Virus record (IMG/VR): IMGVR_UViG_3300030104_007872
Span: 14,085 to 78,084 of that record
Reading direction: 5' to 3' (one strand)
Source of the DNA: a virus
DNA length: 64,000 bases
Under the pieces are notes generated by a model. The model worked only from the letters and a program-made list of their open reading frames with translations, ran no database searches and was not told where the DNA came from. A program made the translations under genes and the position numbers. How positions within the stretch are numbered: position 1 is the stretch's first letter; each line of letters starts with the position of its first letter. Below are positions 6,782 to 43,983 of the stretch, in pieces.

Positions 6782-6803
6782 AATAAAAAGATCTTTATTT
6801 TGT

Positions 6804-6832: not shown

Positions 6833-6837
6833 CAGTA

Positions 6838-8734: not shown

Positions 8735-8779
8735 ATTGATTTTTACACTTTTATTTATATAATAAGATAGGATTAAGGC

Positions 8780-9070: not shown

Positions 9071-9082
9071 AGGAATAAGGTT

Positions 9083-10818: not shown

Positions 10819-10851
10819 ATCTTTGTGTAAATAATACAAAGGTTAACGGAA

Positions 10852-23878: not shown

Positions 23879-24850
23879 ATGATTTTTGAAGAACAACTAG
23901 CGCGAAAGCCCAACCATTATCCATGGGCACAAGATTTTATAGAGGCAATGCACAACGGTTTTTGGACCGACAAAGAATTCAGTTTTAGTAGTGATATTCA
24001 GGATTTTAACGTTAATTTAAACGGAACCGAAAAAGAGATGATTATCCGCACTCTTTCTGCAATTGGCCAGATTGAGGTGGCGGTAAAAAAATTCTGGAGC
24101 AAACTTGGAGACAACCTTCCCCATCCCAGCTTAACGGACTTGGGTTACGTTATGGCCAATACAGAGGTCATTCACAATAATGCGTACGAGCGCTTATTGA
24201 CGGTTCTGGGGCTTGAAGACGTTTTCGAAGAGAACCTTAAGCTAGACTTTATTGAAGGCCGTGTGCGCTATCTGAGGAAGTATAACCATAAATTCTACAA
24301 GGACTCGAAGAAGCAATATGTCTATGCTCTTATTTTGTTTACCCTCTTCGTGGAAAACGTTTCCTTATTTAGCCAGTTTTATGTTATCAATTGGTTTAAT
24401 CGCTTTCGCAACGTTCTTAAAGATACAGGACAACAGGTAAAATATACCCGCAACGAAGAAAATATTCACGCTTTAGCGGGAATCAAAATCATAAACACTA
24501 TACGAAGCGAGCACCCTGAGCTTTTTGACGAGGAATTGCAGGAAAGGGTTGCCTCTGAATCTGAAGCGGCACTGATAGCAGAAAGTAACATTGTCGATTG
24601 GATGGTTAACGGCTTCAATGAAAAAGGTTTAAATGCAGATATTTTGAAGGAATTTATTAAAAATAGAATCAACGATTCTTTGGAGAAAATTGGTTTTGCG
24701 CCAGTATTTAATGTTGACACTTCTTTGCTGGAAGATACAATGTGGTTTGAGGAGGAATTAATGGGCAATAATGCCACTGATTTCTTTCATTCTCGCCCAG
24801 TAGAATATTCAAAAAATTCACAAACATTTGACGCTGACGACCTCTTTTAA
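23879..24850 (+). CDS. nrdB: Ribonucleotide reductase beta subunit, class Id-like
   Basis: QIE66VAVK70, E96xxH99, Y103, VEN and EENIH metal-site motifs. Confidence 0.92.
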   Translation: MIFEEQLARKPNHYPWAQDFIEAMHNGFWTDKEFSFSSDIQDFNVNLNGTEKEMIIRTLSAIGQIEVAVKKFWSKLGDNLPHPSLTDLGYVMANTEVIHNNAYERLLTVLGLEDVFEENLKLDFIEGRVRYLRKYNHKFYKDSKKQYVYALILFTLFVENVSLFSQFYVINWFNRFRNVLKDTGQQVKYTRNEENIHALAGIKIINTIRSEHPELFDEELQERVASESEAALIAESNIVDWMVNGFNEKGLNADILKEFIKNRINDSLEKIGFAPVFNVDTSLLEDTMWFEEELMGNNATDFFHSRPVEYSKNSQTFDADDLF

Positions 24851-26496
24851 TGAAAAAATATAAATGGCTCAACAAAGACTCTAGGGCATTCCTAAAAAGG
24901 GGTTATTTACAAGATGGAGAATCTGCCGAACAGCGTGTGGCTGATATTGCAAAAGCTGCGGAAAAGCACCTTAAGATAAAAGGTTTTGCTGAAAAATTTG
25001 AAGATTACGCTGCGAGGGGCTTTTATTCTTTAGCTAGTCCAGTTTGGGCAAACTTTGGGCGAAAGCGAGGATTACCTGTATCATGCAATGGTGTTTTCAT
25101 TGAAGATCGCATGGATGCCATTTTAGACAAACAGGCTGAGGTCGGAATGCAGACCAAACATGGCGCGGGAACCTCGGCCTATTTTGGTGATTTAAGAGGG
25201 CGCGGCGAACCAATTAATTCTGGCGGCACATCCAGCGGCTCTGTGCATTTCATGGAGCTTTTCGATAAAGTATCTTCTGTTGTTTCTCAAAGTAACGTAA
25301 GGAGAGGTTCCTTTGCCGCATATTTGCCAATTGATCATCCCGACATCAAGGAATTCTTAAGGATAAGGGGTGAAGGAAACCCTATTCAAGAGATGTCTTT
25401 TGGTGTTTGTATTGATGATGAGTGGATGAGATCATTGATGGGCGGTGATCGCCAAAAAAGATCCACATGGGCCGCACTTATACGCAAACGCTTCGAAACA
25501 GGATACCCCTATATTTTCTTTACTGATAGTGCTAATGAAAATGCTCCCAAGGCTTACAAGGATAAAAACCTAAAAATTTCTGCGTCTAATTTGTGTAGCG
25601 AAATATCCCTGCACTCTTCCGAAGAAGAGTCGTTTGTCTGCTGCTTGTCCTCTTTAAATTTGGTTAAATGGGAGGAAATAGTAGAAACAGATGCAGTAGA
25701 AACGCTGGTTTATTTTTTGGATGCAGTAATGGAAGAGTATATCCAGAAGACCGAACACATTCCGTTTATGAAGCCGTCGCATGAGTTTGCAAAACGACAA
25801 CGCGCCTTAGGCGTTGGTGTTCTGGGTTGGCATTCCCTGCTTCAGCAGCAGATGATTCCATTTGAAGGAATGAAGGCTCATGCTCTTAATATCGAAATTC
25901 ATAAAACCATAAGAGATAGAGCGGATAAAGCCACGGAGAATCTAAGCGTGTTACTTGGAGAACCTGAGCACCTCAAGGGTTATGGTAGGCGCAATATGAC
26001 CACAATGGCAATCGCGCCCACCACATCAAGTTCCTTTATATTAGGTCAGGTATCACCGTCTATTGAGCCTCTTAATAGTAATTATTTCACAAAAGACTTG
26101 GCAAAAGGTAAGTTTACTTACAAAAACCCTTACCTAGAGACGCTATTGGAAGAAAAAAATAAAAATACCATTAGCACATGGAAGTCAATTCTGTTAAAGG
26201 GTGGTTCAGTTCAGCATTTAACGTTTTTAACCGATGAAGAGAAGGCTGTATTTAAAACTTTCGGGGAAATCTCACAAAAAGAAATTGTGATTCAGGCATC
26301 GCAACGCCAAAGGTTTATTGATCAAGGGCAAAGTCTCAACCTTATGATTTCGCCAAAATGTCCACCCAAAGAAGTTAGCGAGTTACTTATTTTTGGCTGG
26401 GAACAAGGTATTAAAAGCTTTTATTATCAGCGCAGTGCAAATCCAAGCCAAGAATTAGCTCGATCAATCCTTTCTTGTGCGGCGTGTGAGGGTTGA
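24850..26496 (+). CDS. nrdA: Ribonucleotide reductase alpha subunit, short form without ATP cone
   Basis: PVSC, SNLCSEI, AIAPTTSSS, KSFYY and C-terminal CAACEG. Confidence 0.95.
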   Translation: MKKYKWLNKDSRAFLKRGYLQDGESAEQRVADIAKAAEKHLKIKGFAEKFEDYAARGFYSLASPVWANFGRKRGLPVSCNGVFIEDRMDAILDKQAEVGMQTKHGAGTSAYFGDLRGRGEPINSGGTSSGSVHFMELFDKVSSVVSQSNVRRGSFAAYLPIDHPDIKEFLRIRGEGNPIQEMSFGVCIDDEWMRSLMGGDRQKRSTWAALIRKRFETGYPYIFFTDSANENAPKAYKDKNLKISASNLCSEISLHSSEEESFVCCLSSLNLVKWEEIVETDAVETLVYFLDAVMEEYIQKTEHIPFMKPSHEFAKRQRALGVGVLGWHSLLQQQMIPFEGMKAHALNIEIHKTIRDRADKATENLSVLLGEPEHLKGYGRRNMTTMAIAPTTSSSFILGQVSPSIEPLNSNYFTKDLAKGKFTYKNPYLETLLEEKNKNTISTWKSILLKGGSVQHLTFLTDEEKAVFKTFGEISQKEIVIQASQRQRFIDQGQSLNLMISPKCPPKEVSELLIFGWEQGIKSFYYQRSANPSQELARSILSCAACEG

Positions 26497-26960: not shown

Positions 26961-27818
26961 ATGAGGTTTTTATTCGTATCAGATTTTACATTAGAGCAAA
27001 GATCGGGTGGCGCTCAGGTTAGTAATGACCTGATCATAAAAAGAGGACGCGAGTTGGGCCATGAAATCATTGAGCATGACTACACTTCTTCTCCTGTGGA
27101 TTTTTTATCTTATTACGACTCAATTATTAGCTCTAATCTTGAGGTTATAAGTAGGTCGGCGCCTATCAAACTAGATTTCATAACAAAACATGGAAACCAT
27201 ATACGGCTGGAGCACGATTCTTGCTCCTATTTAAACGCAGAAGTTAGGCGGTCACTGTTCGAATCATCCAACCTTAACTTTTTTCTTTCGGATTTCCACA
27301 TTGGGTTTTTTCGTGAAAGGTATGGAAATTACTTTGAGAATGTTGAAATCGTTTATGACCCTATTGACACTGGACTCTTTTGCGATGATAGCTCAGAAAA
27401 GATTTATGATGTGGTTTATTGTGGGTATTTGCACGAACTTAAGGGTTTAAAAAACTTACTACATTTCGCCTCCTCAAATCCAAATAGGGAAATATCAGTT
27501 TTTGGCTGGTGTGATTTTAAACCCGAATCAGCTTTTTCTGCTTTGGATAATATCTCCTTCCACGGAGAAAGGACTCACGAAGAAATTGCAAAGATATTTA
27601 AGCAAAGTTTAGCTGTATATCACAGCCCAATAGTTAATGAACCCTTTTGCCGCATGGTTGGTGAGGCTCTTTTGTGCGGCGTTCGCGAGGTTATAGGCTC
27701 AACAGAGAAGATAGGCTCTTATTTAGAGTTTCAAAAACATGGTATCGAAAAGTTTAGCCAAGACTGTTCAAATGCTCCTGATGTATTTTGGCAAAAAGTA
27801 CAGGAATCACTCAAATGA
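26961..27818 (+). CDS. Glycosyltransferase (GT-B, family 4-like)
   Basis: GGAQ N-terminal motif, YCGYLHELKG and EPFCRMVGEALLCG. Confidence 0.8.
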   Translation: MRFLFVSDFTLEQRSGGAQVSNDLIIKRGRELGHEIIEHDYTSSPVDFLSYYDSIISSNLEVISRSAPIKLDFITKHGNHIRLEHDSCSYLNAEVRRSLFESSNLNFFLSDFHIGFFRERYGNYFENVEIVYDPIDTGLFCDDSSEKIYDVVYCGYLHELKGLKNLLHFASSNPNREISVFGWCDFKPESAFSALDNISFHGERTHEEIAKIFKQSLAVYHSPIVNEPFCRMVGEALLCGVREVIGSTEKIGSYLEFQKHGIEKFSQDCSNAPDVFWQKVQESLK

Positions 27819-28723
27819 AAATAATTTTAGCGATTAATAAAACACTCAGCCGCAATCAAACCGAGTGTTTAGATGGCGGTTATTATAATTTCTATATTCC
27901 TCTTTTGGAGTTGGGCCACGAAGTTTTATTATACGATACTGTCAGAGGTGCAGAAAAAAGCTTCAATGAGCTTGTGGAAACCTTTAACCCCGATTTAATT
28001 TTTTGTTGTATTACTGGCAATAAAGAGGTCACCCCGTACGAACCATTTGAAGAAATAAAGCATATAACTAAAAACACAAAAATAAAAACATTCAATTGGT
28101 TTTGCGATGACACTTGGAGATTCGACGATTTTAGCAGTAAAGTTTGCAAACACTTCACTCATTGTTCGACGCCCGAAGAAAAATATTTAGATAGATATAA
28201 GGACATAGGATATGAAAATATTTTATTGGGGAATTGGCACTGCAACGCTGATTTGCGATTTCCTTATAATAAATCCGTCGATGTCGGCTTTTGTGGGGGT
28301 ATCACTCAGGCACGAGCGAGCGTTTTCAATTCTCTTATAAGCGGTGGGGTCAATTTAAAATGTTTTTATGGACTGTCTTATGAGGATATTTTTAAAGCTT
28401 ACGCCTCCTCTAGGATAGGTATTAACCTTACTGTTAATGATAATGACCCCTCGAAAAAGCAGCAGATGAAGCTGCGTATCTTTGAGATTGTCGCATCGGG
28501 AACTTTCCTGCTAACAGAAAATGTGGAAGGTTTGGAAAAGTATTTTGAAATTGGAAAGGAAATAGAAACCTTTACAACACCCCAAGAGGCGCAGGAAAAA
28601 ATAACACACTATCTTCAAAATGAAGAGGCTAGGGAAAAAATAGCTGCCGCTGGCCACAGACGCTTTTTGACAGATCACCGTTCAAGTGTTAGATTAACTG
28701 AGGTTTTGGAACAAATAAAATAA
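27815..28723 (+). CDS. Glycosyltransferase (CgeB/Glyco_trans_1_2-like)
   Basis: NWFCDD, RIGIN, RIFEIVASG and IAAAG...H motifs; ATGA overlap at 27815. Confidence 0.8.
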   Translation: MKIILAINKTLSRNQTECLDGGYYNFYIPLLELGHEVLLYDTVRGAEKSFNELVETFNPDLIFCCITGNKEVTPYEPFEEIKHITKNTKIKTFNWFCDDTWRFDDFSSKVCKHFTHCSTPEEKYLDRYKDIGYENILLGNWHCNADLRFPYNKSVDVGFCGGITQARASVFNSLISGGVNLKCFYGLSYEDIFKAYASSRIGINLTVNDNDPSKKQQMKLRIFEIVASGTFLLTENVEGLEKYFEIGKEIETFTTPQEAQEKITHYLQNEEAREKIAAAGHRRFLTDHRSSVRLTEVLEQIK

Positions 28724-29653
28724 ATGACAATATACATACAGAAACATGGAAGCCACGCTGGCTACTGGATATACAGTGGATATGCACACGCATGGATTTA
28801 TCATGGCTTTCAGGTGAAATTTTTTGAATCCTTTGAGGAGGTTGACACAAAACAGCCCTATGCCCTGATGATAACCGATTCTTGGCTTAATAACGAGTAT
28901 GAGGATTACATTAATGCCTTTGATTATCTTAAAAAGAGCGAATTTTGTATACTTTATGCATCTCCAAAAGGTTTTCCTGACCCCTGGGGCACCCATCCTA
29001 ATTTTGTATGCCCGCTCAACGACGAATTTATCAAAAAACTTGACGATATTGATAACTTAGTTAAGTGGAATTTTTCAGAAACTGACAATGAATATTTTTC
29101 TCATTGGAAAGACATAAAAACCATCCCCCTTGCATTCGATAATATAAATTACGAATGTGCAAAAGATGACGAAAAGGAATATTTATATGATGTCTGTTTC
29201 ATCGGCAGCGTAGCTAACAATGGCTTTAATGAAAAAATAGAAATCATAAAAGCTTGCTTAAATGCATTTGCCCACAGCGATTTAAATTGTGGGTTTTCTA
29301 TCGGCCAAAATATTTCTCACGAAAAAGAAAACGAGGTTTTAATTAGGTCTAAAGTATGTTTAAATATTCACGATAAATATCAAAGGGTCTTAGGGTTGGA
29401 TGCCAACGAAAGAACATTCAAGTCTTTAGGCGCCAATGGGTTATTGGTTAGCGATTCTACAACTCAAGTAAAAAACCTCTTTCCAGATGTATTTTGTTCT
29501 AATGAACCGCAGGAGCTTGTGGATGAGTGCAGCAGGCTCGTTTCTAAGGATGTGAAGGAATTAAATAAAATTAAAAAACAAAACAGGCAAACCATAGAGG
29601 ATCAACATTCCTATATCAGAAGAGTCGAACAATTATTGACCTATGCGAATTAA
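28724..29653 (+). CDS. Glycosyltransferase (CgeB-like)
   Basis: DVCFIG, KVCLNIH, NERTFK and HSYIRR. Confidence 0.75.
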   Translation: MTIYIQKHGSHAGYWIYSGYAHAWIYHGFQVKFFESFEEVDTKQPYALMITDSWLNNEYEDYINAFDYLKKSEFCILYASPKGFPDPWGTHPNFVCPLNDEFIKKLDDIDNLVKWNFSETDNEYFSHWKDIKTIPLAFDNINYECAKDDEKEYLYDVCFIGSVANNGFNEKIEIIKACLNAFAHSDLNCGFSIGQNISHEKENEVLIRSKVCLNIHDKYQRVLGLDANERTFKSLGANGLLVSDSTTQVKNLFPDVFCSNEPQELVDECSRLVSKDVKELNKIKKQNRQTIEDQHSYIRRVEQLLTYAN

Positions 29654-30368
29654 TATAATCATTCCAAATTACAACAAGGAACCTTTTGTCATAAAGTGCC
29701 TTGAGTCTTGCTTAAATCAGACTTATGAAAACTTAGGCGTCATTTTCATCGATAACGATAGTACTGATAATAGCTTGCAACTTGTTAAGGATTTTTCAAA
29801 AACGCACGACAGAGATTTTATCATAGATGTGGCAGAAAATATCTATCCCCGCTGTTGGGAGGAATGTATAGAAAAGGCTGAACAATATTTAGATGGGGAA
29901 TATTACACAATTGTTGGTTCAGATGATTACCTTGATGAGAATTATATCGCTAATTTTTGCGAGTGGATAAAAGAGCAAGAGGAGGAGGTCTTAGCCGTTC
30001 ATTCAGACTTACTTTGGGTTGAGGATGGTAAAGATTTCAATTATACAACCTACAAGTATAGCGACATAGACGATTTAAAATTGAAATTAGTTCAAGGGTG
30101 CGCCATAAACAGCCCAACAGTTTTTTATAGTAGGAAAATCACCGAGGATAAGAGCCTTAAGGCTAAACCAGAGGTATATAGCGGCGCAGCAGATTATGAT
30201 TTTTATTGCCAATTGGTTGATAAGGGTATATTTATTCACAATATAGGCGACTGGATAGGCTATCATTACAACGTCAACAAATCTCAGGCAACGTGGGAGA
30301 TGCATCTTGATCCTATTAATTATACAAATGTAATTATTAAAAAGTATAAGGACAAGTGGAAAATTTGA
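29643..30368 (+). CDS. Glycosyltransferase family 2
   Basis: IIIPNYN, IDNDSTDNS, GSDD and DYDF. Confidence 0.9.
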   Translation: MRINIIIPNYNKEPFVIKCLESCLNQTYENLGVIFIDNDSTDNSLQLVKDFSKTHDRDFIIDVAENIYPRCWEECIEKAEQYLDGEYYTIVGSDDYLDENYIANFCEWIKEQEEEVLAVHSDLLWVEDGKDFNYTTYKYSDIDDLKLKLVQGCAINSPTVFYSRKITEDKSLKAKPEVYSGAADYDFYCQLVDKGIFIHNIGDWIGYHYNVNKSQATWEMHLDPINYTNVIIKKYKDKWKI

Positions 30369-31666
30369 CGCAAACATTAGATAGTGTAAGGGATTTTTTA
30401 CGGAGCAAATCCCCCAAAAAATGGATAGCTGGCGAAGATTATGTACAATATGCGGGGCCAGTTTTTGACGAAGAAGAGATATTATCCGCTGTAGAAACAC
30501 TGTTGGACGGCTGGCTCGTTTTGGGCAAGCGAGGTTTATCTTTCGAGAGGCAGTTTTGCAAGCTGTTGGGTAAGGATTATGGCGTATTGACTAATAGCGG
30601 AAGTAGTTCGAACCTAATAATGATGGAGGCCCTAAAATCCAAAAGATTATACGGACTCCCAAATGACACAAAAGTTATTACTCCTATAGCGGGATTTCCC
30701 ACGACGCTAAATCCAATATTTCAGGTAGGGTTTAAGCCACTGTTTGTAGATATTGACATCGATACTCTTAATTTAAATTTAGAGCAAGTAGAAGAAAAGG
30801 CTAAAAAAGGCGCAAAAGTAATAACATTTGCACATGTTTTGGGCAATCCACCAAATATGGATCAGCTAATGCAGATAGTGAATGAGTATGATTTGATTTT
30901 ACTTGAGGATTGTTGTGATGCGCTAGGTTCCAGCTACAGAGGGAACGATTTGGGTAGTTTTGGAGAATTTTCCACATGTTCTTTTTATCCAGCCCACCAT
31001 ATTACAATGGGAGAGGGTGGATTTGTCGCTTCAAAAACCTACAACCAGCAAATTGTCGCTAGAAGCTTAAGGGAATGGGGGCGCGGATGTTATTGCGTAG
31101 GGGAAAAGGCGGGTTTGTCTAAAACGGGGTGCTGCGGCAAAAGGTTTAGCAATTGGCTTCCAAGTTTACCAGATGAAGTTTTTGATCACAAATATGTCTA
31201 TGACGAGATTGGCTATAATTTAAAACCTATTGAAATTCAAGCGGCTATCGGTTTGCAGCAACTGAAAAAATTACCTTCAATTATCACACGCAGAAAAGAA
31301 AACCATAAAAAACTTTATGATATTTTTGCGAAACATGAAGAGTATTTTATTTTGCCAGAGGCAACCGATGGGAGTGACCCTAGTTGGTTTGCTTTCGCCG
31401 TAACTCTTCGCGATGGCTGTAAATTCAAGAGAAATGAAATAGTGGACTTTTTTGAGTCGCATAAAATACAAACGCGCCCTTATTTTGCTGGAAATATCAT
31501 GTTGCAACCCGCTTATCGCGGGATTGTCAACGCCGAGGATGTTGTTAAAAAGTATCCCAATGCTCGCAAAGTAACCACCGACACCATGTTTCTAGGAACC
31601 AGCCCAGTAATTACTGATGAACAAATTAGATATATTGAAGAAGTTTTATATAATTTCATTGGATGA
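30356..31666 (+). CDS. rfbH: NDP-4-keto-6-deoxyglucose 3-dehydrase (E1/RfbH/DdhC; PMP and [2Fe-2S])
   Basis: EDCCDA, SFYPAHHITMGEGG (His at the PLP-Lys position), WGRGCYC...CCGKRF and DHKYVY. Confidence 0.9.
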   Translation: MENLTQTLDSVRDFLRSKSPKKWIAGEDYVQYAGPVFDEEEILSAVETLLDGWLVLGKRGLSFERQFCKLLGKDYGVLTNSGSSSNLIMMEALKSKRLYGLPNDTKVITPIAGFPTTLNPIFQVGFKPLFVDIDIDTLNLNLEQVEEKAKKGAKVITFAHVLGNPPNMDQLMQIVNEYDLILLEDCCDALGSSYRGNDLGSFGEFSTCSFYPAHHITMGEGGFVASKTYNQQIVARSLREWGRGCYCVGEKAGLSKTGCCGKRFSNWLPSLPDEVFDHKYVYDEIGYNLKPIEIQAAIGLQQLKKLPSIITRRKENHKKLYDIFAKHEEYFILPEATDGSDPSWFAFAVTLRDGCKFKRNEIVDFFESHKIQTRPYFAGNIMLQPAYRGIVNAEDVVKKYPNARKVTTDTMFLGTSPVITDEQIRYIEEVLYNFIG

Positions 31667-32610
31667 AGATAGTTTATGTCACAGGGTGCTTGGGTTTTAT
31701 TGGATCTCACATTACGCGACACTGCCTGAATAAGGGGTGGTATGTTAAGGGTGTTGATAAGCTTACTTATGCTGCCAACAGGGAGTTTCTAAACGAATTT
31801 CAAAAATTCGAAAATTTTTCATTCCTACAAGAGGATATCAATGATCTAAAGTTTTTATATGAATGTGACTATGTTATTAATACCGCAGCGGAAACTCATG
31901 TGGGAAACAGTATCATTAGTAGCGCTGATTTCATAAAATCAAACATTGATGGGGTCCATAATTTGCTAGAATTGATTAAGAATTATAGAATAGAAAACCT
32001 CAAAAAACCAACACTGTTACATCTTAGCACTGACGAAGTTTATGGAGATATTGCCAATGGAGATCACGGAGAGGAAGATCTTTTAAGGCCAAGTAACCCA
32101 TATTCAGCGACTAAAGCTGCTGCCGACATGCTAATTTTAGCTTGGGCTCGCACTCACTCGATACCTTACCTTATTGTTAGACCCACGAACAACTACGGAA
32201 TTGGTCAGTATGTAGAAAAATTAATTCCCAAGGCTTGTAAGTATTTAAAAATCAAGAAAAAAATACCCCTTCATAATGGGGGTGAACCCGTAAGGAATTG
32301 GTTACACGCCGATGATACCGCGAGTGCGATCACCACACTGATAGACAGTGGTTGTAAAAACGAAATATATAATATTTCTGGGCCTTTTGAGCAAAGTAAT
32401 TATGAGACCTGCAAAAAAATCATTAAACTCTTCGACCCAAGTTTGAAAGTGGACGAGTGTTTAGATTTTTCCTATGATAGGGCAGGTCAAGATGTTCGAT
32501 ACGCTCTTAATGATTCCAAGCTACAGGGTATTGGCTGGTCCGCGTCAAAAAACTTTGATGAGGAATTACCAGCAATAGTTGACCACTATAAGCATAAATT
32601 TATCTGGTAA
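31663..32610 (+). CDS. rfbB: dTDP-glucose 4,6-dehydratase
   Basis: GCLGFIG, DKLTYA, AAETHV, STDEVYG and YSATK. Confidence 0.88.
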   Translation: MKIVYVTGCLGFIGSHITRHCLNKGWYVKGVDKLTYAANREFLNEFQKFENFSFLQEDINDLKFLYECDYVINTAAETHVGNSIISSADFIKSNIDGVHNLLELIKNYRIENLKKPTLLHLSTDEVYGDIANGDHGEEDLLRPSNPYSATKAAADMLILAWARTHSIPYLIVRPTNNYGIGQYVEKLIPKACKYLKIKKKIPLHNGGEPVRNWLHADDTASAITTLIDSGCKNEIYNISGPFEQSNYETCKKIIKLFDPSLKVDECLDFSYDRAGQDVRYALNDSKLQGIGWSASKNFDEELPAIVDHYKHKFIW

Positions 32611-33620
32611 TGAGAGCTTGTGATTACATAGCGACAGCATTGAGCAAAAGAGGCGTAAAGTATGTTTACGGCGTAATGGGCGGCGGTGCTGCGGGTTTAA
32701 ATGATGGCTTCATTAAAAACAGCAATATACAATACATCGGCTTTCACCATGAGCAGGGGGCAAGTCATGCAGCTATAGGGGAAAGCAAGGTTACAAAAAA
32801 AATTGCAGTCGTTAATCCGACCACGGGTTGTGGTGGCACTAATTGCGTAACTTCGGTCTTGGATGCGTGGCAAGACAGTATACCAGTGGTATTCATATCG
32901 GGCAATGTGCGCTTAAGTCATACCAGTTCACACATCAATAGAATAAACAATACATCAATTAGAAAATTTGGAATACAGGAACACGATATCGTTTCTACAG
33001 TAAAATCAATTACAAAGTATTCAAAATTTGTAGAGACAGCGGAGGATGTTCCATACGAACTTGAACGTGCTATTCATGAGGCGACAAGCGGAAGAATGGG
33101 GCCAGTGTGGCTAGACATTCCCAGTGATGTTCAGCATGGTGACATACCCGAAACCCACAAAACCTTTACTCCTGGAATTGATAACGTTTTAAATAAAGGT
33201 TTAGACTATGTAGAGCAAAGCATTAACAATTATGACAGGCCGTTAGTCCTTGCGGGGTATGGTGTGGTTTTAAGCGATTCTAAAAACGACTTTAAAAAGT
33301 TTATCGAACAAAACAACGTACCTTTTGTTACTAGTTATTTAGGTATTGATATTCTTGGTTATGAACACCCACTAAACTTGGGAACTATAGGAATCAAGGG
33401 CAGTAGGGCGGGTAATTTTGCGATTCAAAATTGTGATTGCCTAATAGTGATGGGTTGCTCTCTCAACAGTTCGCATTTAGGCTATGATGAAAATTTGTTT
33501 TCTCCGAAGTCCCACAAAATAATCATTGACATAGATTCAGATGAACACGCAAAAAACAAAGTTAAGATAGACAAATTAATAAAAGCAGATTTGCGCGAAT
33601 TTTTTAATCATGAAAGCTGA
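32610..33620 (+). CDS. Thiamine-diphosphate enzyme, N-terminal and central domains (acetolactate synthase/YerE-like)
   Basis: HHEQGA, TTGCGGTN, GRMGPVWLDIPSDVQ and RAGNFAIQNCD. Confidence 0.85.
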   Translation: MRACDYIATALSKRGVKYVYGVMGGGAAGLNDGFIKNSNIQYIGFHHEQGASHAAIGESKVTKKIAVVNPTTGCGGTNCVTSVLDAWQDSIPVVFISGNVRLSHTSSHINRINNTSIRKFGIQEHDIVSTVKSITKYSKFVETAEDVPYELERAIHEATSGRMGPVWLDIPSDVQHGDIPETHKTFTPGIDNVLNKGLDYVEQSINNYDRPLVLAGYGVVLSDSKNDFKKFIEQNNVPFVTSYLGIDILGYEHPLNLGTIGIKGSRAGNFAIQNCDCLIVMGCSLNSSHLGYDENLFSPKSHKIIIDIDSDEHAKNKVKIDKLIKADLREFFNHES

Positions 33621-34359
33621 GTGGATTGATAGATGCAAGAGGTGGAAAAGTAAGTGGCCAATCTTCAAAGATTCGTTTATTGACGATTCGAACGGCGTTA
33701 ATCTTTATAATTTTATTGAGATTTTAAATTCCGTAATAACAAAAAACGAAACAATAGTCAGTGATGCTGGATCGGCCATATATGTGCCCTGCCAGAATTT
33801 AAAATTAAAAGAGGGTCAAGACTTCATCATATCTGGGGCTCAAGCCGATATGGGTTTTGCATTGCCAGCTTCCATTGGTGTATACTTGGCGGATTCTACG
33901 AAAAATGTATTAGTTGTAACGGGCGACGGAAGCTTCAATACCAATATTCAGGAGTTAGCTGTGATTAGAAGCCTAAACGTACCAATAAAAATCTTTGTCT
34001 GGAACAATAATGGTTATTTGAGCATTAGAAATACACAAAGCAAGTTTTATGAGGGTCGCGTCTATGGGACAGACAAGGATACTGGGCTCTGGTTTCCAGA
34101 ATTAGAATCAGTGGCAAAGACTTATGAATTTGACTTCGTAAAATTATCAACGAACGTGGAAGTGAGAGATAACTTACTTAAAATTATTAATAATAAAAAC
34201 CCTATGATATGTGAGGTTATTTGCGACCCCAATCAAGATATTACACCAACCTTAATGCTAAAAGAGGACGAGGCAACGGGTGAAAAAATTCAGTGCGGTT
34301 TGGATGACATGTTTCCATTTTTGTCACAAGCAGAACTAGATAACGAAAAATACAATTAA
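33610..34359 (+). CDS. Thiamine-diphosphate enzyme, C-terminal ThDP-binding domain
   Basis: MGFALPASIG and GDGSF...NNNGY motifs. Confidence 0.85.
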   Translation: MKAEWIDRCKRWKSKWPIFKDSFIDDSNGVNLYNFIEILNSVITKNETIVSDAGSAIYVPCQNLKLKEGQDFIISGAQADMGFALPASIGVYLADSTKNVLVVTGDGSFNTNIQELAVIRSLNVPIKIFVWNNNGYLSIRNTQSKFYEGRVYGTDKDTGLWFPELESVAKTYEFDFVKLSTNVEVRDNLLKIINNKNPMICEVICDPNQDITPTLMLKEDEATGEKIQCGLDDMFPFLSQAELDNEKYN

Positions 34360-34361
34360 TT

Positions 34362-35291
34362 ATGAAAAAAAATATTTTACAATTTAATAAAATGAAAGCC
34401 AAGGGGGAGCCAATAACGTGGGTAACCGCCTACAGTTATCCGTTTGCTGCTGCCGCAGAGAGGGCTGGAATCGAAATGATATTAGTTGGCGATTCAGGAG
34501 GTATGGTCGAGCTTGGCTACGAAACGACAAATCCTGTCACAATGGATGAAATGATTACATTCGCTAAGGCAGCAAGAAAGGGCGCCCCAAATACTTTTGT
34601 CGTTGGCGATATGCCTCAAAGTTCGTATGAAATTTCTGATGAGGAGGCGATCAAAAATGCGATGAGGTTTGTAAAAGAGGCGGGGGTGGACGCCGTTAAG
34701 CTTGAAGGTGGAGATAGAGTGGTTAGCAGAATAAAAGCTATTGTTGATGCGGGCATATTGGTTATAGGCCACCTTGGCTTAACCCCCCAAAGCACTGTTT
34801 CATTTGGCGGCTACAAGGTTCAGGGTAAGTCTGTCGAAAGCTTTGAAGAAATGGTGGATGATTGTCGCAGTATTAGCGATGCAGGGTGCTGCATGATATT
34901 ACTAGAGGCTATTCCAAGTTCTGTCGGCGGTCAAATTTCAAAAGCGTTCGATATCCCAATCATGGGTATTGGAGCGGGAGATCTGGTAGATGGGCAGCTT
35001 TTGATCATGCACGATTTAACAGGGTTCTACACAGATTTTCGACCTTGGTTTGCAAAATGCTACATCCCGCAAGTTATTGAAAAATATGCGAATGAATTAA
35101 GCAATTATAAAGACATTAAAAAACACGGTATTGACACGAGGATGGACGGGCTGAATGTCCTTGTCGAGTATGCGCTCAGCGACTATCACCACGAGGTAAA
35201 GAACAAGGAGTATCCCCCCTCAGAGTATATTTATCCGATTAAAGATGAAGATTTGGAAAAGCTGAAAAATTCCAGATACTGGGTGGACTAG
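34362..35291 (+). CDS. panB: 3-methyl-2-oxobutanoate hydroxymethyltransferase (PanB family)
   Basis: ILVGDS, VVGDMP, VKLEGG, GHLGLTPQ and GIGAG...DGQ. Confidence 0.92.
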   Translation: MKKNILQFNKMKAKGEPITWVTAYSYPFAAAAERAGIEMILVGDSGGMVELGYETTNPVTMDEMITFAKAARKGAPNTFVVGDMPQSSYEISDEEAIKNAMRFVKEAGVDAVKLEGGDRVVSRIKAIVDAGILVIGHLGLTPQSTVSFGGYKVQGKSVESFEEMVDDCRSISDAGCCMILLEAIPSSVGGQISKAFDIPIMGIGAGDLVDGQLLIMHDLTGFYTDFRPWFAKCYIPQVIEKYANELSNYKDIKKHGIDTRMDGLNVLVEYALSDYHHEVKNKEYPPSEYIYPIKDEDLEKLKNSRYWVD

Positions 35292-35296
35292 ATTTA

Positions 35297-36079
35297 ATGA
35301 AGAAGAGTATATTGATCACTGGCGCCAATGGCTATGTTGCGCGAGCGCTACAGAAGGGCCTGAGCGCTTATGACCTAACGACGATTCAGCGCACGGATTT
35401 TGACCTAACCGACCAAAAGGCCACCGAAGATTTCTTTAAAAATAAATTTTTCGATGTTGTCATTCATACGGCGATTAGGGGTGGTAGGAGATTACAGCAA
35501 GACGACAACGAAGTTTTTGATGGTAATGTTCAAATGTTTTTAAATTTATTAAAAAACAAAAATAGTTTTGGAAGATTCATAAATTTAGGTTCGGGCGCTG
35601 AGGTAAAAGAAACTTCCACTCCTTATGGATTTAGCAAGAGCGTTATTAGCAACAGGCTGTTAAGTGAACCTAATTTTCATAACGTGCGAATATACGGCAT
35701 TTTTGACGCTAATGAACTGTCCACTAGGTTTATAAAAGCCAACATTACAAATTACCTCAATAAACAGCCAATGAAGGTCCTTCAAAACAAAAAAATGGAT
35801 TTCTTCTACATGCCCGATTTAATTAAACTTATTGATTTTTTAGTGGCTGGTAAAAAGCCCTTGAAAGTAATTGAGTGCTGTTATGACGAAGCCTTTTCTT
35901 TATCGTGGATTGCAAATTTTATCAATACATTAGGCTCTCACAAGGTAGATATAAAATTAGCTAGCAGTGACACAGACGCCGATTATGTTGGGTCCAATTC
36001 TGCTGAAAATTTACCGATTGAATTTACAGGCTTAATCAAGGGAATTAGAGAAACTTTTAATATACTTAAAAACGAATGA
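35297..36079 (+). CDS. NAD-dependent sugar epimerase/reductase
   Basis: ITGANGYVA, GSGAE and YGFSK. Confidence 0.85.
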   Translation: MKKSILITGANGYVARALQKGLSAYDLTTIQRTDFDLTDQKATEDFFKNKFFDVVIHTAIRGGRRLQQDDNEVFDGNVQMFLNLLKNKNSFGRFINLGSGAEVKETSTPYGFSKSVISNRLLSEPNFHNVRIYGIFDANELSTRFIKANITNYLNKQPMKVLQNKKMDFFYMPDLIKLIDFLVAGKKPLKVIECCYDEAFSLSWIANFINTLGSHKVDIKLASSDTDADYVGSNSAENLPIEFTGLIKGIRETFNILKNE

Positions 36080-37164
36080 AACTTTCTTATTCAGACATAA
36101 TAGATTCGCGTAAGGGTGAGGCGGCAGTGGTTGTTGGTGCGGGGCCATCATTAAATAACAACAAAAAACAAATTATCGATGCTCAAAAAGATGGTTTGAT
36201 AAAAATTTGCGTTAACGAGTGGTTTCGCCTTTTTGAAAACAACTCAAAGCCAGATTATTTAGTTTTGGCTAGTGGGCATCACACAGATTCCATCACCGCT
36301 CACGGACCTATCGCAAATGAGTTAAAGTTTCCTATTTTTTACGCTAATTCCACAGACGCGACCCCTCAGTCATGGGTGGAAGAGAATATGAAGGCGGATT
36401 GGTTCGGCTTTGATCAGCGGCATTGGCAAGGCAAAAATTGCCGTCATCTTATTGGTGAAATTGCCCACTGGATTGCTGAGGAATATCACAGACTAACGGG
36501 CGAATATCCACTACCAAATTCTATTAAGGAGGGCTCCACGGATGGATATCCCCTCTTTCCTATTGACATGCATTCGCTTAATGCGGTCACTGGGGGTTCC
36601 TCCAGCTTCTTCAGAGGTGCTACTTCGCCCAAGGCTGAGGAATTAAAAGAGATGATACAAAGGGCGCCCGAGGGCTTTTCATTACAGAATTTGAAAATGT
36701 ATGGCAATAATGGAATAATGTGGGATGGGCGCTGGCCATATGGCGGATTATGTGAGGCTGTGCGGTGGGAGTTTGACGCTACCGCAGGATGGAGGGCGGT
36801 TCCAAGATTTCCATGCACTAAAGTGGGTGATGCTTCAACGTTAACGGTGCAGGAAACCCTGCAAAATACATCAGGATTTGATTGTCATTATAGCACGGGG
36901 GATACGGTAATAGTTCACGCTCTTGCATTTGCTATTTTGATGGGTTGTAATCCCATCTATGTAACAGGCATGGATTTGGATTATCGTGTGGGCTACGCTA
37001 GTTCTCAAGCAGCCCCACTCAATAACGATTGGCAAAGGTTTGCTAGGAATTTGATTAATGATTTGAAAATCCTTAATGAGAGCGCTATAATGAGGGGTAT
37101 CGAAATCATCAATCTTCAAAAAGATGCTTGGTACGGCCAAATTAAACACGGAGAACTTAAATGA
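36076..37164 (+). CDS. Maf/DUF115 (MptE-like) putative nonulosonic-acid transferase
   Basis: VVGAGPSL...ICVNE and TV...ALAFAILMGCNPIYVTGMDL. Confidence 0.7.
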   Translation: MKLSYSDIIDSRKGEAAVVVGAGPSLNNNKKQIIDAQKDGLIKICVNEWFRLFENNSKPDYLVLASGHHTDSITAHGPIANELKFPIFYANSTDATPQSWVEENMKADWFGFDQRHWQGKNCRHLIGEIAHWIAEEYHRLTGEYPLPNSIKEGSTDGYPLFPIDMHSLNAVTGGSSSFFRGATSPKAEELKEMIQRAPEGFSLQNLKMYGNNGIMWDGRWPYGGLCEAVRWEFDATAGWRAVPRFPCTKVGDASTLTVQETLQNTSGFDCHYSTGDTVIVHALAFAILMGCNPIYVTGMDLDYRVGYASSQAAPLNNDWQRFARNLINDLKILNESAIMRGIEIINLQKDAWYGQIKHGELK

Positions 37165-38009
37165 ATAAAGAATGTCCCACCCATACATATGTAATCGCAG
37201 AAATAGGTATTAACCACAACGGTGATGTAGATATAGCGAAAGAACTTATCGAGCAAGCTTGCTCAGCGGGTTGCGATGCCGTTAAATTTCAAAAAAGAAC
37301 CATTGATCTGGTTTACTCACAAGAAGAGTTAGATTCGCCACGGGAATCTCCATTTGGAACCACGACCAGACAGCAAAAAGAGGGTATAGAGTTGCACATT
37401 TCCGAATTGCAAACATTAGAAGATTACGCCTCAAGCCTTGGTCTTGACTTTATTGTTTCATGTTGGGATGGGAATAGCTTAGATGAGGTAAATAATAATC
37501 TTAATGTTCGTTACCACAAAATTGCGTCAGCAATGTTGACCGATGTCATGTTTTTGGAGAAAGTAAATAATACAGGCAAGCCTGTTATCCTCTCAGTGGG
37601 CATGTCTACTGATGAGGAAATAGACAAGGCTTTAAATTTACTGGATAACGTCGAATATATATTGGCTTGCACCAGCACTTATCCAACAAAAGCCGAAGAA
37701 GTAAACCTTCTTCACGTTTCTACGTTAAAAAATCAATTTGAAGACTTAGGCGTTGCGGTAAAAGTTGGTTTTTCAAATCATTACAACGGTGCAGATGCGT
37801 GTGTGGGCGCTGTCGCCTTAGGCGCCGAGTGTATTGAGTTTCACATAACACGAGACAGGACGATGTATGGTTCGGATCAACCTGCGTCTATTGAGGATGC
37901 CGCGTCTCTTGTTGCGGGTATTCGAAATATGGAGATGATGATTGGAGATGGAATTAAAAAAGTCTATGATTCCGAAAAACCTATAGCCGCTAAATTAAGG
38001 AAAAATTAA
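37161..38009 (+). CDS. neuB: Nonulosonic/sialic acid synthase (NeuB family), lacking the C-terminal AFP-like domain
   Basis: IAEIGINHNGD, DAVKFQKR, KIASA, GFSNH and IEFHIT...GSDQ. Confidence 0.92.
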   Translation: MNKECPTHTYVIAEIGINHNGDVDIAKELIEQACSAGCDAVKFQKRTIDLVYSQEELDSPRESPFGTTTRQQKEGIELHISELQTLEDYASSLGLDFIVSCWDGNSLDEVNNNLNVRYHKIASAMLTDVMFLEKVNNTGKPVILSVGMSTDEEIDKALNLLDNVEYILACTSTYPTKAEEVNLLHVSTLKNQFEDLGVAVKVGFSNHYNGADACVGAVALGAECIEFHITRDRTMYGSDQPASIEDAASLVAGIRNMEMMIGDGIKKVYDSEKPIAAKLRKN

Positions 38010-38013
38010 AACG

Positions 38014-38451
38014 ATGAGAGTAACAAATATCGACACCCTTTCCGCGTATTTTGATAGATTAATAACAGAAAACATAAAGTTATTTTTTTTCAAAAAGGAC
38101 CAAGAACAGGAAAAGGTTGATCATCAAAAAGAAGTAATTTCTGATATTAAAGGTAAAATCTCCACTCTAATTAAAGAGTGCTTAGATACTGGTAAATACG
38201 AATATCTTTCAGAAAAACGAACATTTAACGAAAACTCTATAGTAGAAAATTTAGAGGAATTAGTTTTTAATGATATTAATATAGGCGAATCGGATAGAGA
38301 AAGATTAAAACAAGTACAATCTGAGACTCCAAGCTTAGATAAGTTCATAGTTAATGAAAAGAGACTTCGTAAGGCTAATGAGGGAAGGGCGCGTAATAAA
38401 AATGAAATTGACAACCAATTTCAAAAAATAATCGAAGAGCCTCAGACATGA
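38014..38451 (+). CDS. Helical hypothetical protein (DUF4254-like)
   Basis: DRLITENIK and ANEGRARNKNEID patterns. Confidence 0.45.
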   Translation: MRVTNIDTLSAYFDRLITENIKLFFFKKDQEQEKVDHQKEVISDIKGKISTLIKECLDTGKYEYLSEKRTFNENSIVENLEELVFNDINIGESDRERLKQVQSETPSLDKFIVNEKRLRKANEGRARNKNEIDNQFQKIIEEPQT

Positions 38452-39437
38452 AGGTCTTAATAACAGGGGTGGCAGGGCTACTGGGCTCTAATTTTGCTAA
38501 ATATTTACTATCCAAGGGTTACACCGTTATAGGAATTGACGACCTGTCAGGTGGTTATAGAGAGTCTGTGCATGATGAGGTGGATTTTCACCAAATAAAC
38601 CTAAGTGATCATAAACGTTTGGAAGAATGTTTCCTTAAAACACAACCCGACTATGTTTATCATTTTGCTGCGTATGCAGCAGAGGGTTTAAGCCCATACA
38701 TCAGGAGGCACAACTACACCAACAATCTGGTTTGCTCCGCTAATGTTATTAATGCTTGTGTTAATTTTAACGTAAAAAAACTCATATTCACGTCATCAAT
38801 GGCGGTATACGGCAGAGGCAATCCACCATTTACTGAAGATCAGCGCCCTACACCTGAAGACCCGTATGGTGTTGCTAAATACGCCGTAGAGATGGACTTG
38901 AAGATGGCGCATAAGCAGTTTGGCTTAAATTATTCCATTGTGCGACCCCACAATGTCATAGGTGTGGGTCAAAACATTTGGGATCGCTATCGCAATGTTA
39001 TTGGAATATGGATTCGAAAATGCATGAGTGGAGAACCGATTAGCATTTTTGGCGACGGAACTCAAGTTCGCGCTTTTTCTGATATTAAATTTTACATGAA
39101 ACCCTTTGAAAAATTAATGAAAAATTATGAGGGTGAAATTTTTAATATTGGCGCTGATAAAGATTGGACTATAAATGATGCCGCAAATCTAGTGGCAGAT
39201 GTGGCAAAAGACTGTGGGTATCAACCTTCGATTACACATTTACCGCCTCGAAACGAGGTTCACACCGCTTACTGCGATCACGCAAAAGCTAAGGAGTTTT
39301 TAGGCTTTATTGACGAAACCAATTTACAACAAACCATCAAAGATATGTTTGCTTGGGCGGCTGCACAAAAAGATCATGCCGTAACATACTTTGATTACGA
39401 AATAGAAAAAAATCTTTATACTTTTTGGAAAAAATGA
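38448..39437 (+). CDS. NAD-dependent nucleotide-sugar epimerase/dehydratase
   Basis: ITGVAGLLG, SSMAVYG and YGVAK. Confidence 0.88.
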   Translation: MKVLITGVAGLLGSNFAKYLLSKGYTVIGIDDLSGGYRESVHDEVDFHQINLSDHKRLEECFLKTQPDYVYHFAAYAAEGLSPYIRRHNYTNNLVCSANVINACVNFNVKKLIFTSSMAVYGRGNPPFTEDQRPTPEDPYGVAKYAVEMDLKMAHKQFGLNYSIVRPHNVIGVGQNIWDRYRNVIGIWIRKCMSGEPISIFGDGTQVRAFSDIKFYMKPFEKLMKNYEGEIFNIGADKDWTINDAANLVADVAKDCGYQPSITHLPPRNEVHTAYCDHAKAKEFLGFIDETNLQQTIKDMFAWAAAQKDHAVTYFDYEIEKNLYTFWKK

Positions 39438-40474
39438 TGAAATTCGGTATTTGGCGACATGAAAATTCCATAGGAAATTCGGTGGAACACACGATGGGTC
39501 TAGCGGTTTATTTAACAGTCAATAAGATTGATCCCGCCAATGTGGAAGTTTATGTCGAGAACGATTGGCAGAAAGATTTCGTTCTGTGCATACAGGGTAT
39601 TCAGGAAAAAAATGTAAAGTTTTTTGAGCGCCCCGTTGAAATGGACACTAAAGATCCGTATTTTGATGACATTCACATGCCAAACGTTTACGGACCAACC
39701 GCTTTCCCGCTTAGTTACGAGTGCGATTGGAATTATCTAGATAAACATAAAGAGCTTAACGTTTCACTTAAGTTTGACGATAGCGATTACGAAAATAAAT
39801 TTAATTTACCTAAAGATGCAGTTGTTCTCTTTTGTAGGGAACACGGAACGTGGTGGAAACGTGAGGATGGTAGTGAATTTGAGCCCGAGAGATTTGTGGA
39901 CCCCGAAACCTTCCATGATTTAGCTCACTATTACGCTAATAAAGGCTATAAAGTGATTAAGATTGGTGACGCCAAACAAAAAAGGTTGCGGGGAAATTAT
40001 ACACCTTTTGAATTCGGAGAGAGATACGAACACGAGAACCTGATCGATTTTACCAAATATCTTGACGAAGACGGCAACCCTAGATGGACTCTGAAAGATT
40101 ATCTGTTTATTCTACAAAATTGTAAGGTTTTTATCTCCTGTGATGCTGGAATTTGGCCAATGGCCGCAGCAATGAATAAAAATCTTGTTTTTTGCAATGT
40201 GATGTGCATACTTTACCCTATAACCCTCAAGCCACTTTCGGATGGAGCAAAGCTTTCGGATGATGGTCTGACCATAGAGTTTACGAAGCCCAATATGGTG
40301 ACGTGGATGCCACGGAAAACTACTAGGGTCTTACTGAAACATGCAACCATAGACACGGATAAGCTTAAAAGAGTTGAAGAGGATAGCGGAACGTATAAGA
40401 TTTTCTCCACTGATGTGATTTTTAGCGATAACACCTTCACGGAAATACTCACAGCAACAGAAACGTTAATTTAG
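39434..40474 (+). CDS. Putative glycosyltransferase (GT9/TIGR04372-like)
   Basis: SIGN N-terminus, GYKVIKIG and FISCDAGIWPMAAAM. Confidence 0.6.
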   Translation: MMKFGIWRHENSIGNSVEHTMGLAVYLTVNKIDPANVEVYVENDWQKDFVLCIQGIQEKNVKFFERPVEMDTKDPYFDDIHMPNVYGPTAFPLSYECDWNYLDKHKELNVSLKFDDSDYENKFNLPKDAVVLFCREHGTWWKREDGSEFEPERFVDPETFHDLAHYYANKGYKVIKIGDAKQKRLRGNYTPFEFGERYEHENLIDFTKYLDEDGNPRWTLKDYLFILQNCKVFISCDAGIWPMAAAMNKNLVFCNVMCILYPITLKPLSDGAKLSDDGLTIEFTKPNMVTWMPRKTTRVLLKHATIDTDKLKRVEEDSGTYKIFSTDVIFSDNTFTEILTATETLI

Positions 40475-40475
40475 C

Positions 40476-41153
40476 ATGAATATCGCTGCCTTTATACCTG
40501 CGCGAGGTGGTAGCAAAGCAATTCCGCGCAAAAATATTATAGAATTTGCAGGGCAACCACTATTAAGTTGGTCAATCGAACAGGCTCAAGCTTCCGAATA
40601 CATAAATAACGTTTACGTTTCTTCTGATGATGATGAAATTTTGCGGATTTCTGAAAATTATGGTGCAAAGTCAGTTAAGCGTCCCGATGATATTTCTGGC
40701 GACTTAGCTTCAAGTGAATCCGCTTTACTGCACTTTACAAGTCACCTTAAAAATGTTGATCTCGTAGTCTTCCTTCAGGCCACGTCGCCGCTACGCGAAC
40801 CCTGTGATCTGGACGGGGCAATAGAGCACTTTTTAATGCATAATTACGATTCCCTGTTTTCAGCAAATGAATTGGGAGACATGTGCATCTGGAGAAAAAA
40901 AAACAATAAGCTTAAAAGCTATAATTATAATTATAAAAATCGCCAGCGTCGGCAAGATCTTAATCAGGAACAACTGGTGGAAAATGGTTCGTTTTATTTA
41001 TTTACGCCAAAATGCTTGCGAAAATATAAAAATCGTTTAGGCGGAAAAATAGGATATTTTTTAATGGAAAATTGGAAAATTCACGAGGTTGACACGCCAG
41101 AGGATCTAGTGTTATGTGAGTTTATGTTTAAGCAGAAGGGATTGAATAAGTGA
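40476..41153 (+). CDS. neuA: CMP-nonulosonic acid synthetase
   Basis: IPARGGSKAIPRKN, LQATSPLR, ENGSFY and EVDTPED. Confidence 0.92.
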   Translation: MNIAAFIPARGGSKAIPRKNIIEFAGQPLLSWSIEQAQASEYINNVYVSSDDDEILRISENYGAKSVKRPDDISGDLASSESALLHFTSHLKNVDLVVFLQATSPLREPCDLDGAIEHFLMHNYDSLFSANELGDMCIWRKKNNKLKSYNYNYKNRQRRQDLNQEQLVENGSFYLFTPKCLRKYKNRLGGKIGYFLMENWKIHEVDTPEDLVLCEFMFKQKGLNK

Positions 41154-43693: not shown

Positions 43694-43983
43694 TATATGT
43701 AGATATCGACGGGACGATTTGTGAGTCAGCGCCAACAGGTGATTATTCAGATGCGCTACCAGTCCAAAGCTCTATAAATAAAATAAACAAATTATATCAC
43801 GAAGGTAACACCATTATCTATTGGACTGCTCGTGGCACTGTAACATATATAGATTGGCTAGAGATGACCAAAGATCAGTTAAATCAGTGGGGCTGTTTAT
43901 TTCACGATGTTAGAGCAGGAAAGCCTCAGTATGATTTATGGATTGATGATAAATCTATAAAAATAGAAGAACTTGATGAGTAA
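43687..43983 (+). CDS. Minimal HAD-family phosphatase
   Basis: DIDGT, WTARG and GKP...IDDK. Confidence 0.85.
   Translation: MVIYVDIDGTICESAPTGDYSDALPVQSSINKINKLYHEGNTIIYWTARGTVTYIDWLEMTKDQLNQWGCLFHDVRAGKPQYDLWIDDKSIKIEELDE

Follow-up and report, generated by a model that had tools for sequence, protein, structure and literature searches.

Enzymes that build acyl-branched sugars have been brought under a "unifying scheme", which rests on the erwiniose, caryophyllose and gastriose clusters (ErwI/ErwJ-ErwE-ErwF; MMAR_2331/2332; MygI/MyGE/MygF; Steitz et al. 2022, PMC9306805). The P. atrosepticum aldolase ErwI yields 4-hydroxy-2-oxopentanoate, which ErwE joins to a 4-keto-3,6-dideoxy sugar, and ErwF carries out a reduction; ErwE accepts 4-hydroxy-2-oxobutanoate and rejects pyruvate (PMC9306805). 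A cassette of six genes identified in a large uncultured phage is best read as this acyl-branched-sugar scheme with a folate-dependent PanB paralogue in place of the aldolase. The cassette lies in a 64,000-nt stretch, hereafter the window, which corresponds to positions 14085-78084 of a 78-kb IMG/VR phage contig (record IMGVR_UViG_3300030104_007872).

Genes for a 4-keto-3,6-dideoxyhexose, a YerE-like carboligase, a side-chain reductase and a putative enzyme for a 4-hydroxy-2-oxo-acid donor are common to the phage cassette and to the clusters of the unifying scheme. The donor enzyme differs, being a pyruvate aldolase of the HpcH/BphI type, which uses an aldehyde, in the latter, and a PanB paralogue expected to depend on methylene-tetrahydrofolate (methylene-THF), and hence on a one-carbon (C1) unit, in the phage. 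The phage carrier and the splitting of the thiamine diphosphate (ThDP) enzyme into two pieces are further distinctive traits. Like the yersiniose A pathway of Yersinia pseudotuberculosis (DdhA-D, YerE, YerF), the cassette features an E1-type His/[2Fe-2S] 3-dehydrase, a ThDP enzyme of the C4-branching type and a reductase. Unlike that pathway, it includes neither an E3 reductase nor a nucleotidyltransferase, its 4,6-dehydratase is RmlB-like and not of the CDP type, and the presence of a PanB-like gene as an extra member implies that the donor is not pyruvate. Among solved structures, the ThDP enzyme is closest to JanthE (8rph) and PpYerE (5ahk), both ketone-accepting carboligases. JanthE accepts donors longer than pyruvate, and its physiological substrates are stated as unknown (PMC12188165). 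No paper linking PanB to YerE or to branched sugars was found in the literature, and the terms PanB, KPHMT and hydroxymethyltransferase are absent from PMC12247030.

The six-gene cassette

The cassette spans 30356-36079. Its genes are translationally coupled, since the ends of neighbouring genes overlap or are at most 5 nt apart, and are organized as follows:

30356..31666, + strand, E1/RfbH-type 3-dehydrase of nucleoside diphosphate (NDP)-4-keto-6-deoxyhexoses, dependent on pyridoxamine phosphate and [2Fe-2S], 436 aa (NF011936, PDB 3bcx)
31663..32610, + strand, RmlB-like NDP-hexose 4,6-dehydratase, a short-chain dehydrogenase/reductase (SDR) of 315 aa (TIGR01181)
32610..33620, + strand, N-terminal (Pyr) and middle domains of a YerE/JanthE-like ThDP carboligase, 336 aa (PF02776, PF00205)
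33610..34359, + strand, C-terminal (PP) domain of the ThDP carboligase as a separate ORF, 249 aa (PF02775)
34362..35291, + strand, paralogue of PanB, a PanB-like 2-oxo-acid hydroxymethyltransferase, 309 aa (PF02548, NF001452)
35297..36079, + strand, short extended-SDR reductase, candidate side-chain ketoreductase similar to YerF/ErwF, 260 aa (PF01370)

The five gene types recognised in an initial annotation made from the sequence alone are all found where they had been placed, according to profile and structure-database sequence matches. A blastn search of the phage collection with the cassette returned no match.

The 3-dehydrase scores above the RfbH equivalog cut-off (NF011936, 456.3 bits vs 423), and its closest solved relative is the Yersinia E1 protein 3bcx (340 bits over residues 17-435). 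His214, which replaces the Schiff-base lysine binding pyridoxal phosphate (PLP), is present in 18/18 close homologues, and the cysteines of the array C187-X57-C245-X1-C247-X12-C260 are kept in 16-18 of the same 18. The X57 and X1 spacers agree with the published Fe-S motif of these enzymes, and the last spacer is 12 rather than 7. The 4,6-dehydratase is 59-69% identical across related phage cassettes. The top model is dTDP-glucose 4,6-dehydratase (TIGR01181), the CDP-glucose dehydratase model (CDP_4_6_dhtase) giving 57 bits only. The name RfbB initially given to this gene is therefore correct as to the best model by far, but the score remains under the family cut-off (291 vs 365 bits). Homologues of the short SDR come after the ThDP or the PanB-like gene in most phage cassettes.

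E3 (Fer2 domain) and NTP_transferase domains are both missing from the 78-kb contig, which represents ~29% of the genome (CheckV). The two domains are similarly missing from a CheckV-complete 194-kb phage bearing the cassette. This implies that NDP-glucose and electron carriers are both provided by the host; for the electron donor, the same had been anticipated from the lack of an E3/RfbI reductase. General cellular reductases serve as electron source for E1 homologues such as SpnQ. In some relatives, a 635-aa protein with a weak NTP_transferase match is encoded upstream of the dehydrase.

The two ThDP ORFs overlap by 11 nt, and alignment to fused homologues places the break in the linker between the middle and C-terminal domains. 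The catalytic glutamate ('HHEQG') and the GDG...NN motif are conserved; the ThDP-binding motif is thus the canonical GDG, where JanthE has CDG. Among solved structures, the N-terminal plus middle ORF matches JanthE at 182 bits, PpYerE at 168, and the best acetohydroxyacid synthase at 132. A fused homologue from locus L002 gives a sharper separation, as it scores 386 bits with JanthE and 224 with a plant acetohydroxyacid synthase, PpYerE being slightly lower (214). Acetolactate synthase models match the phage ORFs far under their cut-offs (202 bits vs 538). The same split is found in six related phage contigs (L067, L068, L077, L070, L084, L087) and is not, therefore, a sequencing error. The enzyme is fused (590-600 aa) in more distant phages and in all the bacteria examined. 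Carboligation onto an NDP-4-keto sugar is predicted from these similarities.

The PanB-like protein and its association with the carboligase

The PanB-like protein belongs to the same fold family as the housekeeping PanB enzymes 1M3U and 1OY0, but is found in a context of glycan, and not of pantothenate, genes. It gives 310 bits with PF02548, and exceeds the cut-offs of NF001452 (301 vs 272) and TIGR00222 (264 vs 208). Residues of the GDS, DxP, KLEGG, GHLGLTPQ and LE motifs, which align to those that bind the metal and catalyse the reaction in 1M3U and 1OY0, are kept. Residues G46, Q86, N57 and W20 are specific to the group, canonical PanBs having L, F, V and M at these positions, and plausibly line the substrate pocket. 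An insertion of ~28 aa and a C-terminal extension are additional features.

The PanB-like proteins group in a single tight clade of a maximum-likelihood tree, split from the canonical PanBs of the same genomes with 99% support in the approximate likelihood-ratio test (SH-aLRT). A canonical PanB is encoded elsewhere in 8/10 carrier genomes, and PanC in 3/5. Because the clade is separate and the two forms coexist, the PanB-like copy is not the vitamin gene. Neither panC/panE nor ilvC/ilvD accompany the cassette. All this bears out the early view that the locus is dedicated neither to vitamin nor to amino-acid synthesis. The ~308-aa form of PanB is abundant, as at least 8000 protein matches were found, the top 120 of which are 64-75% identical. 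Within the clade, members with and without ThDP linkage are intermingled on short branches. Some Terriglobia encode PanB-like proteins 58-60% identical to that of the phage and lack YerE-like enzymes, the only matches being at the level of acetohydroxyacid synthases. Taken together, this intermingling and the Terriglobia genomes indicate that the substrate of the PanB-like protein is probably a common small metabolite rather than an acetyl group bound to a sugar.

Association with the ThDP gene is conserved. In IMG/VR, a YerE-like gene is adjacent to, or within two genes of, the PanB-like gene in 22/22 other loci, and 14 of these host the full set (E1-type dehydrase, RmlB-like dehydratase, ThDP enzyme, PanB-like protein and short SDR). 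Species-representative genomes contributed 64 PanB-like loci, from Bacteroidota, Acidobacteriota, Spirochaetota, Elusimicrobiota, Cloacimonadota, phyla of the candidate phyla radiation (CPR), Myxococcota, Verrucomicrobiota and others. Enough flanking DNA had been fetched to make 41 of them informative, and in 19 of the 41, from more than 10 phyla, the ThDP gene is adjacent, in either order. Linkage was similarly found in 51/68 informative loci on metagenome contigs. In an uncultured bacterium (L042:2884-5658), the two functions are fused in a 924-aa protein with TPP_N, TPP_M, TPP_C and Pantoate_transf domains, encoded next to a Wzx-type flippase gene. The same cassette occurs in dozens of unrelated contigs, hence the adjacency is far beyond chance. 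His-type DegT 3-dehydratases are encoded in the fetched flanks of 28/42 ThDP-linked loci, and 17 are of the E1 type (four cysteines), 11 of the ColD type. The occurrence of both partners ties the PanB/ThDP pair to 3,6-dideoxy-4-keto sugars of more than one nucleotide series.

The phylogeny of the ThDP enzymes tracks the linkage. PanB-adjacent enzymes cluster, with 5 label changes on the tree against 22.3 in shuffles, none of 500 being as low. PanB-linked enzymes from CPR genomes and from L121 group with the linked ones of other phyla, apart from the unlinked YerE-like enzymes that were sampled in L060's class of small genomes. Adjacency in either order, the fusion and this tree all support the functional tie between PanB and the ThDP enzyme that had been proposed.

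In the class of L060 (L094-L123, genomes of 0.7-1.8 Mb), YerE-like enzymes were found in 35/401 genomes. The short SDR is beside them in 17/30 loci, a PanB-like gene in 2/30. This distribution fits a core made by the ThDP enzyme and the reductase, to which the PanB-like protein is added to change the donor. Yersiniose-type branched sugars may be widespread in this class.

Proposed pathway and rival explanations

The six genes plausibly make up a phage-encoded pathway to a C4-acyl-branched 3,6-dideoxyhexose, in which the PanB-like protein would make the donor. This reading is drawn from sequence comparisons and is held with moderate confidence. We infer each catalytic step, the order in which PanB-like and ThDP enzymes act, the donor, the nucleotide and the glycan target. 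NDP-glucose from the host would be dehydrated by the RmlB-like 4,6-dehydratase; the E1/RfbH-type dehydrase would then remove the oxygen at C3, drawing electrons from a ferredoxin or flavodoxin system of the host. In parallel, the PanB-like protein would use 5,10-methylene-THF to hydroxymethylate C3 of a small 2-oxo acid, and give a 4-hydroxy-2-oxo acid. This would most likely be 4-hydroxy-2-oxobutanoate formed from pyruvate, the product from 2-oxobutanoate and ketopantoate being alternatives. The two-piece YerE/JanthE-like enzyme would decarboxylate the 4-hydroxy-2-oxo acid and join the activated acyl unit to the sugar at its C4 ketone, the short SDR would reduce the side-chain ketone, and the adjoining glycosyltransferases would transfer the finished sugar to a target.

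The assignment to yersiniose-type C4 branching made by the initial annotation is supported. The order it had envisaged, PanB before the ThDP enzyme, fits the ErwI-ErwE-ErwF precedent (PMC9306805), as well as the existence of PanB-like orthologues in genomes lacking a YerE-like enzyme. The chemistry of PanB also leads to 4-hydroxy-2-oxo acids, and the PanB-like protein therefore fits the slot occupied by ErwI. Its presence in genomes without YerE-like enzymes, and in homoserine/methionine operons, points to a small metabolite as substrate. A donor corresponding to ketopantoate or an analogue had been suggested. A hydroxymethylated 2-oxo acid is retained as the likely type of donor, and ketopantoate is just one option; L, F and V of canonical PanB are changed to G, Q and N. 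Preference goes to 4-hydroxy-2-oxobutanoate, because it is the keto acid of homoserine and would be obtained from pyruvate and a C1 unit; the choice is tentative, and may well prove wrong. With this donor, a 3-hydroxypropanoyl branch would be formed and reduced to 1,3-dihydroxypropyl. Either 2-oxobutanoate or ketoisovalerate is a possible substrate of the PanB-like protein.

Several observations weigh against the pathway as drawn. No natural sugar with such a branch is, to our knowledge, described. Replacement of hydrophobic residues by G46, Q86 and N57 could fit a substrate that is larger or polar, an acetyl group on the sugar being among the candidates. The PanB-like gene has no ThDP neighbour in between about a quarter and half of the informative loci, which argues that the protein is not a dedicated sugar enzyme. 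In most loci of the L060 class, YerE-like enzyme and reductase are paired without PanB, and the ThDP enzyme might accordingly still use pyruvate. Lastly, sampling for the ThDP tree is uneven, as PanB-linked sequences are from many phyla and unlinked ones mostly from one class; the tree is for this reason supporting evidence, not proof.

In a rival explanation, the order is reversed. The ThDP enzyme would add an acetyl group from pyruvate, as YerE does, and the PanB-like protein would then hydroxymethylate the methyl of the 4-C-acetyl branch, an alpha-hydroxy ketone that, as a 2-oxo acid does, can chelate Mg. The resulting 3-hydroxypropanoyl branch would be the same. The L to G, F to Q and V to N changes suggest indeed a roomier and more polar active site, and the PanB-like gene follows the ThDP gene both in the window and in the majority of phage cassettes. 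Gene order is flipped in many other loci, however, and highly similar PanB-like proteins are encoded in genomes lacking YerE-like enzymes, and also in metX-metY and other non-glycan contexts. Moreover, in the sole tested precedent the aldolase acts first, and ErwE does not take pyruvate (PMC9306805). The reverse order is for us unlikely.

The two enzymes may alternatively not be joined in the making of one branch. A plain acetyl-branched sugar of the yersiniose type could be made from pyruvate, the PanB-like protein supplying some other substituent of the glycan (a hydroxy-acid or a hydroxy-aldehyde), or else the ThDP and PanB-like enzymes could produce a free small molecule, in analogy to phosphoenolpyruvate (PEP) mutase and phosphonopyruvate decarboxylase. 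Consistent with this, 14/42 ThDP-linked loci have no His-type dehydratase in the fetched flanks, PanB is in the PEP mutase superfamily (weak PF13714 match), and many further tailoring genes are found in the island hosting the cassette. The solved structures most similar to the ThDP enzyme are carboligases accepting ketones, however, and not decarboxylases, the cassette has no conserved acyl ligase or acyltransferase, and fusion, strict adjacency and separate ThDP clades all argue for a direct substrate-product link. We regard this explanation as improbable. Far less credit is given to the hypothesis that PanB, acetolactate synthase and IlvE are auxiliary metabolic genes, raising pantothenate/CoA or branched-chain amino-acid synthesis in the host. 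It may appeal to the NCBIfam name of the PanB-like protein, 3-methyl-2-oxobutanoate hydroxymethyltransferase, and to the matches of the ThDP ORFs to acetolactate synthase models. These matches are far below threshold, however; the PanB-like clade is apart from, and coexists with, canonical PanB, the companion genes panC/panE or ilvC/ilvD are missing, and, in one coupled operon, the genes have a 3-dehydrase on one side and a sugar reductase on the other. The sub-threshold ThDP scores, the separate clade and the coexistence led to rejection of the vitamin or branched-chain amino-acid reading.

Genes flanking the cassette, other PanB-like contexts and significance

The cassette is part of a glycan-synthesis island of ~20 kb (26961-47082), made of 23 genes on one strand. 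The island includes, besides the cassette, four glycosyltransferases, a nonulosonic-acid module and a colitose-type trio. Transferase genes are directly upstream of the cassette, in the same operon:

26961..30368, + strand, four glycosyltransferase genes (Pfam: one GT1-like, two Glyco_trans_1_2, one GT2)

They are candidate transferases for the products of the cassette. Homologues denoted GT1b, GT1c and GT2 are likewise found upstream of the cassette in the related phage locus L079. In L079, a gene for a B12-binding radical SAM protein (12547-14211) separates the 4,6-dehydratase gene from an Fcl-like gene within the cassette, and may direct a further C-methylation or a sugar rearrangement.

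The nonulosonic-acid-type module is downstream, at 36076-43983. It encodes a Maf/MptE-like protein, a 282-aa NeuB without SAF domain, a PseF-like CMP-transferase, an IlvE-like class IV aminotransferase, a xylose-isomerase-like TIM barrel, an SDR, a 98-aa HAD-like phosphatase and a TIGR04372-like glycosyltransferase. No aminotransferase of the PseC/LegC type and no acetyltransferase was recognised in this module. The class IV aminotransferase (41150) had been initially proposed as supplier of the 2-oxo acid. The candidate was rejected, because no counterpart was found at or near 166 related loci searched with the proteins of the window. The gene is not part of the conserved module, and more likely belongs to the nonulosonic-acid module. 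A second 3-deoxygenation route is encoded at 43973-47082 by an Fcl/ColC-like reductase, a 389-aa DegT protein and Gmd (337 bits). The DegT protein has the histidine in 'FGHQIQSVEGG' and no Fe-S cysteines, and is thus of the ColD type. The trio looks like a GDP-colitose-type set.

The tail genes of the contig include a 2340-aa tape-measure-like ORF and matches to tail tube and minor tail proteins. The contig also encodes ribonucleotide reductase, DnaB, a primase, a homologue of DNA polymerase III alpha and a ClpB-like ATPase. By Pfam scans, ribonucleotide reductase subunits and the DNA polymerase III alpha homologue are located at 23879-26496 and 52779-56693, and the PHP domain is on a separate ORF.

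Outside glycan loci, PanB-like genes are found close to genes of homoserine and methionine metabolism. Two Ignavibacteria (L054:7438-10900 and L050) feature a metY-metX-PanB-like operon (TIGR01326, 632 bits; TIGR01392, 333 bits). In L033 and L036 (~6100-14100), the order is aminotransferase-homoserine dehydrogenase (HSDH)-x-PanB-like-Cys/Met PLP enzyme-amino-acid kinase, the PanB-like gene thus lying between those for HSDH and the PLP enzyme. The homoserine dehydrogenase domain (PF00742) was not found in the two Ignavibacteria genomes, which are metagenome-assembled genomes (MAGs) and may be incomplete; a semialdehyde dehydrogenase domain was found. Among 50 PanB-like carrier genomes, 34 encode PF00742, missing only in the two metY-metX-PanB-like Ignavibacteria and a few others, which are MAGs and possibly incomplete. 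The PanB-like protein as a general replacement of homoserine dehydrogenase was rejected on these counts. In the Ignavibacteria, the keto acid of homoserine may possibly be reached by a folate-dependent route.

A second recurrent neighbour, directly beside the PanB-like gene, encodes a highly conserved 420-aa protein (L062:10918-12210). Homologues were found in L005, L007, L011, L015, L017, L023, L031, L045, L155, L156, L162, L168, L173, L198, L199 and L203. The protein has no Pfam, NCBIfam or PDB sequence match, and Atlas scores are at chance level. The AF2 model (pLDDT 79.7) features a helical N-terminal part and a TIM-like barrel. Foldseek gave nothing below 1e-3, and the VIA fold list is flat (Z 12.5 to 10.5), with the E chain of glutamate mutase on top (12.5).

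The data on PanB-like genes may be joined in one broader proposal, speculative and as a whole rather doubtful. The PanB-like protein would be a natural methylene-THF-dependent pyruvate hydroxymethyltransferase, and its product, 4-hydroxy-2-oxobutanoate, would feed YerE-like carboligases in phages, CPR bacteria and others. The outcome would be a "missing" C3-branched sugar, 4-C-(1,3-dihydroxypropyl)-3,6-dideoxyhexose, beside yersiniose (C2), erwiniose (C4) and caryophyllose (C6). Combined with a transaminase, the same protein would allow some bacteria, among them the metY-metX-PanB-like Ignavibacteria, to make homoserine independently of aspartate. If the metX-metY linkage holds, it would point to a new entry into homoserine metabolism.

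If the proposed pathway is true, "panB" and "acetolactate synthase" genes of viral and environmental genomes would often be glycan genes, and it would be wrong to count them as auxiliary metabolic genes for vitamin or amino-acid synthesis. The aldolase-based unifying scheme would be extended to a folate-dependent enzyme providing the donor from a C1 unit. A candidate type of physiological donor would be at hand for JanthE/YerE-like carboligases, biocatalysts in development for chiral tertiary alcohols. An undescribed class of carbon-branched deoxy sugars would decorate phage or host surfaces in many phyla.

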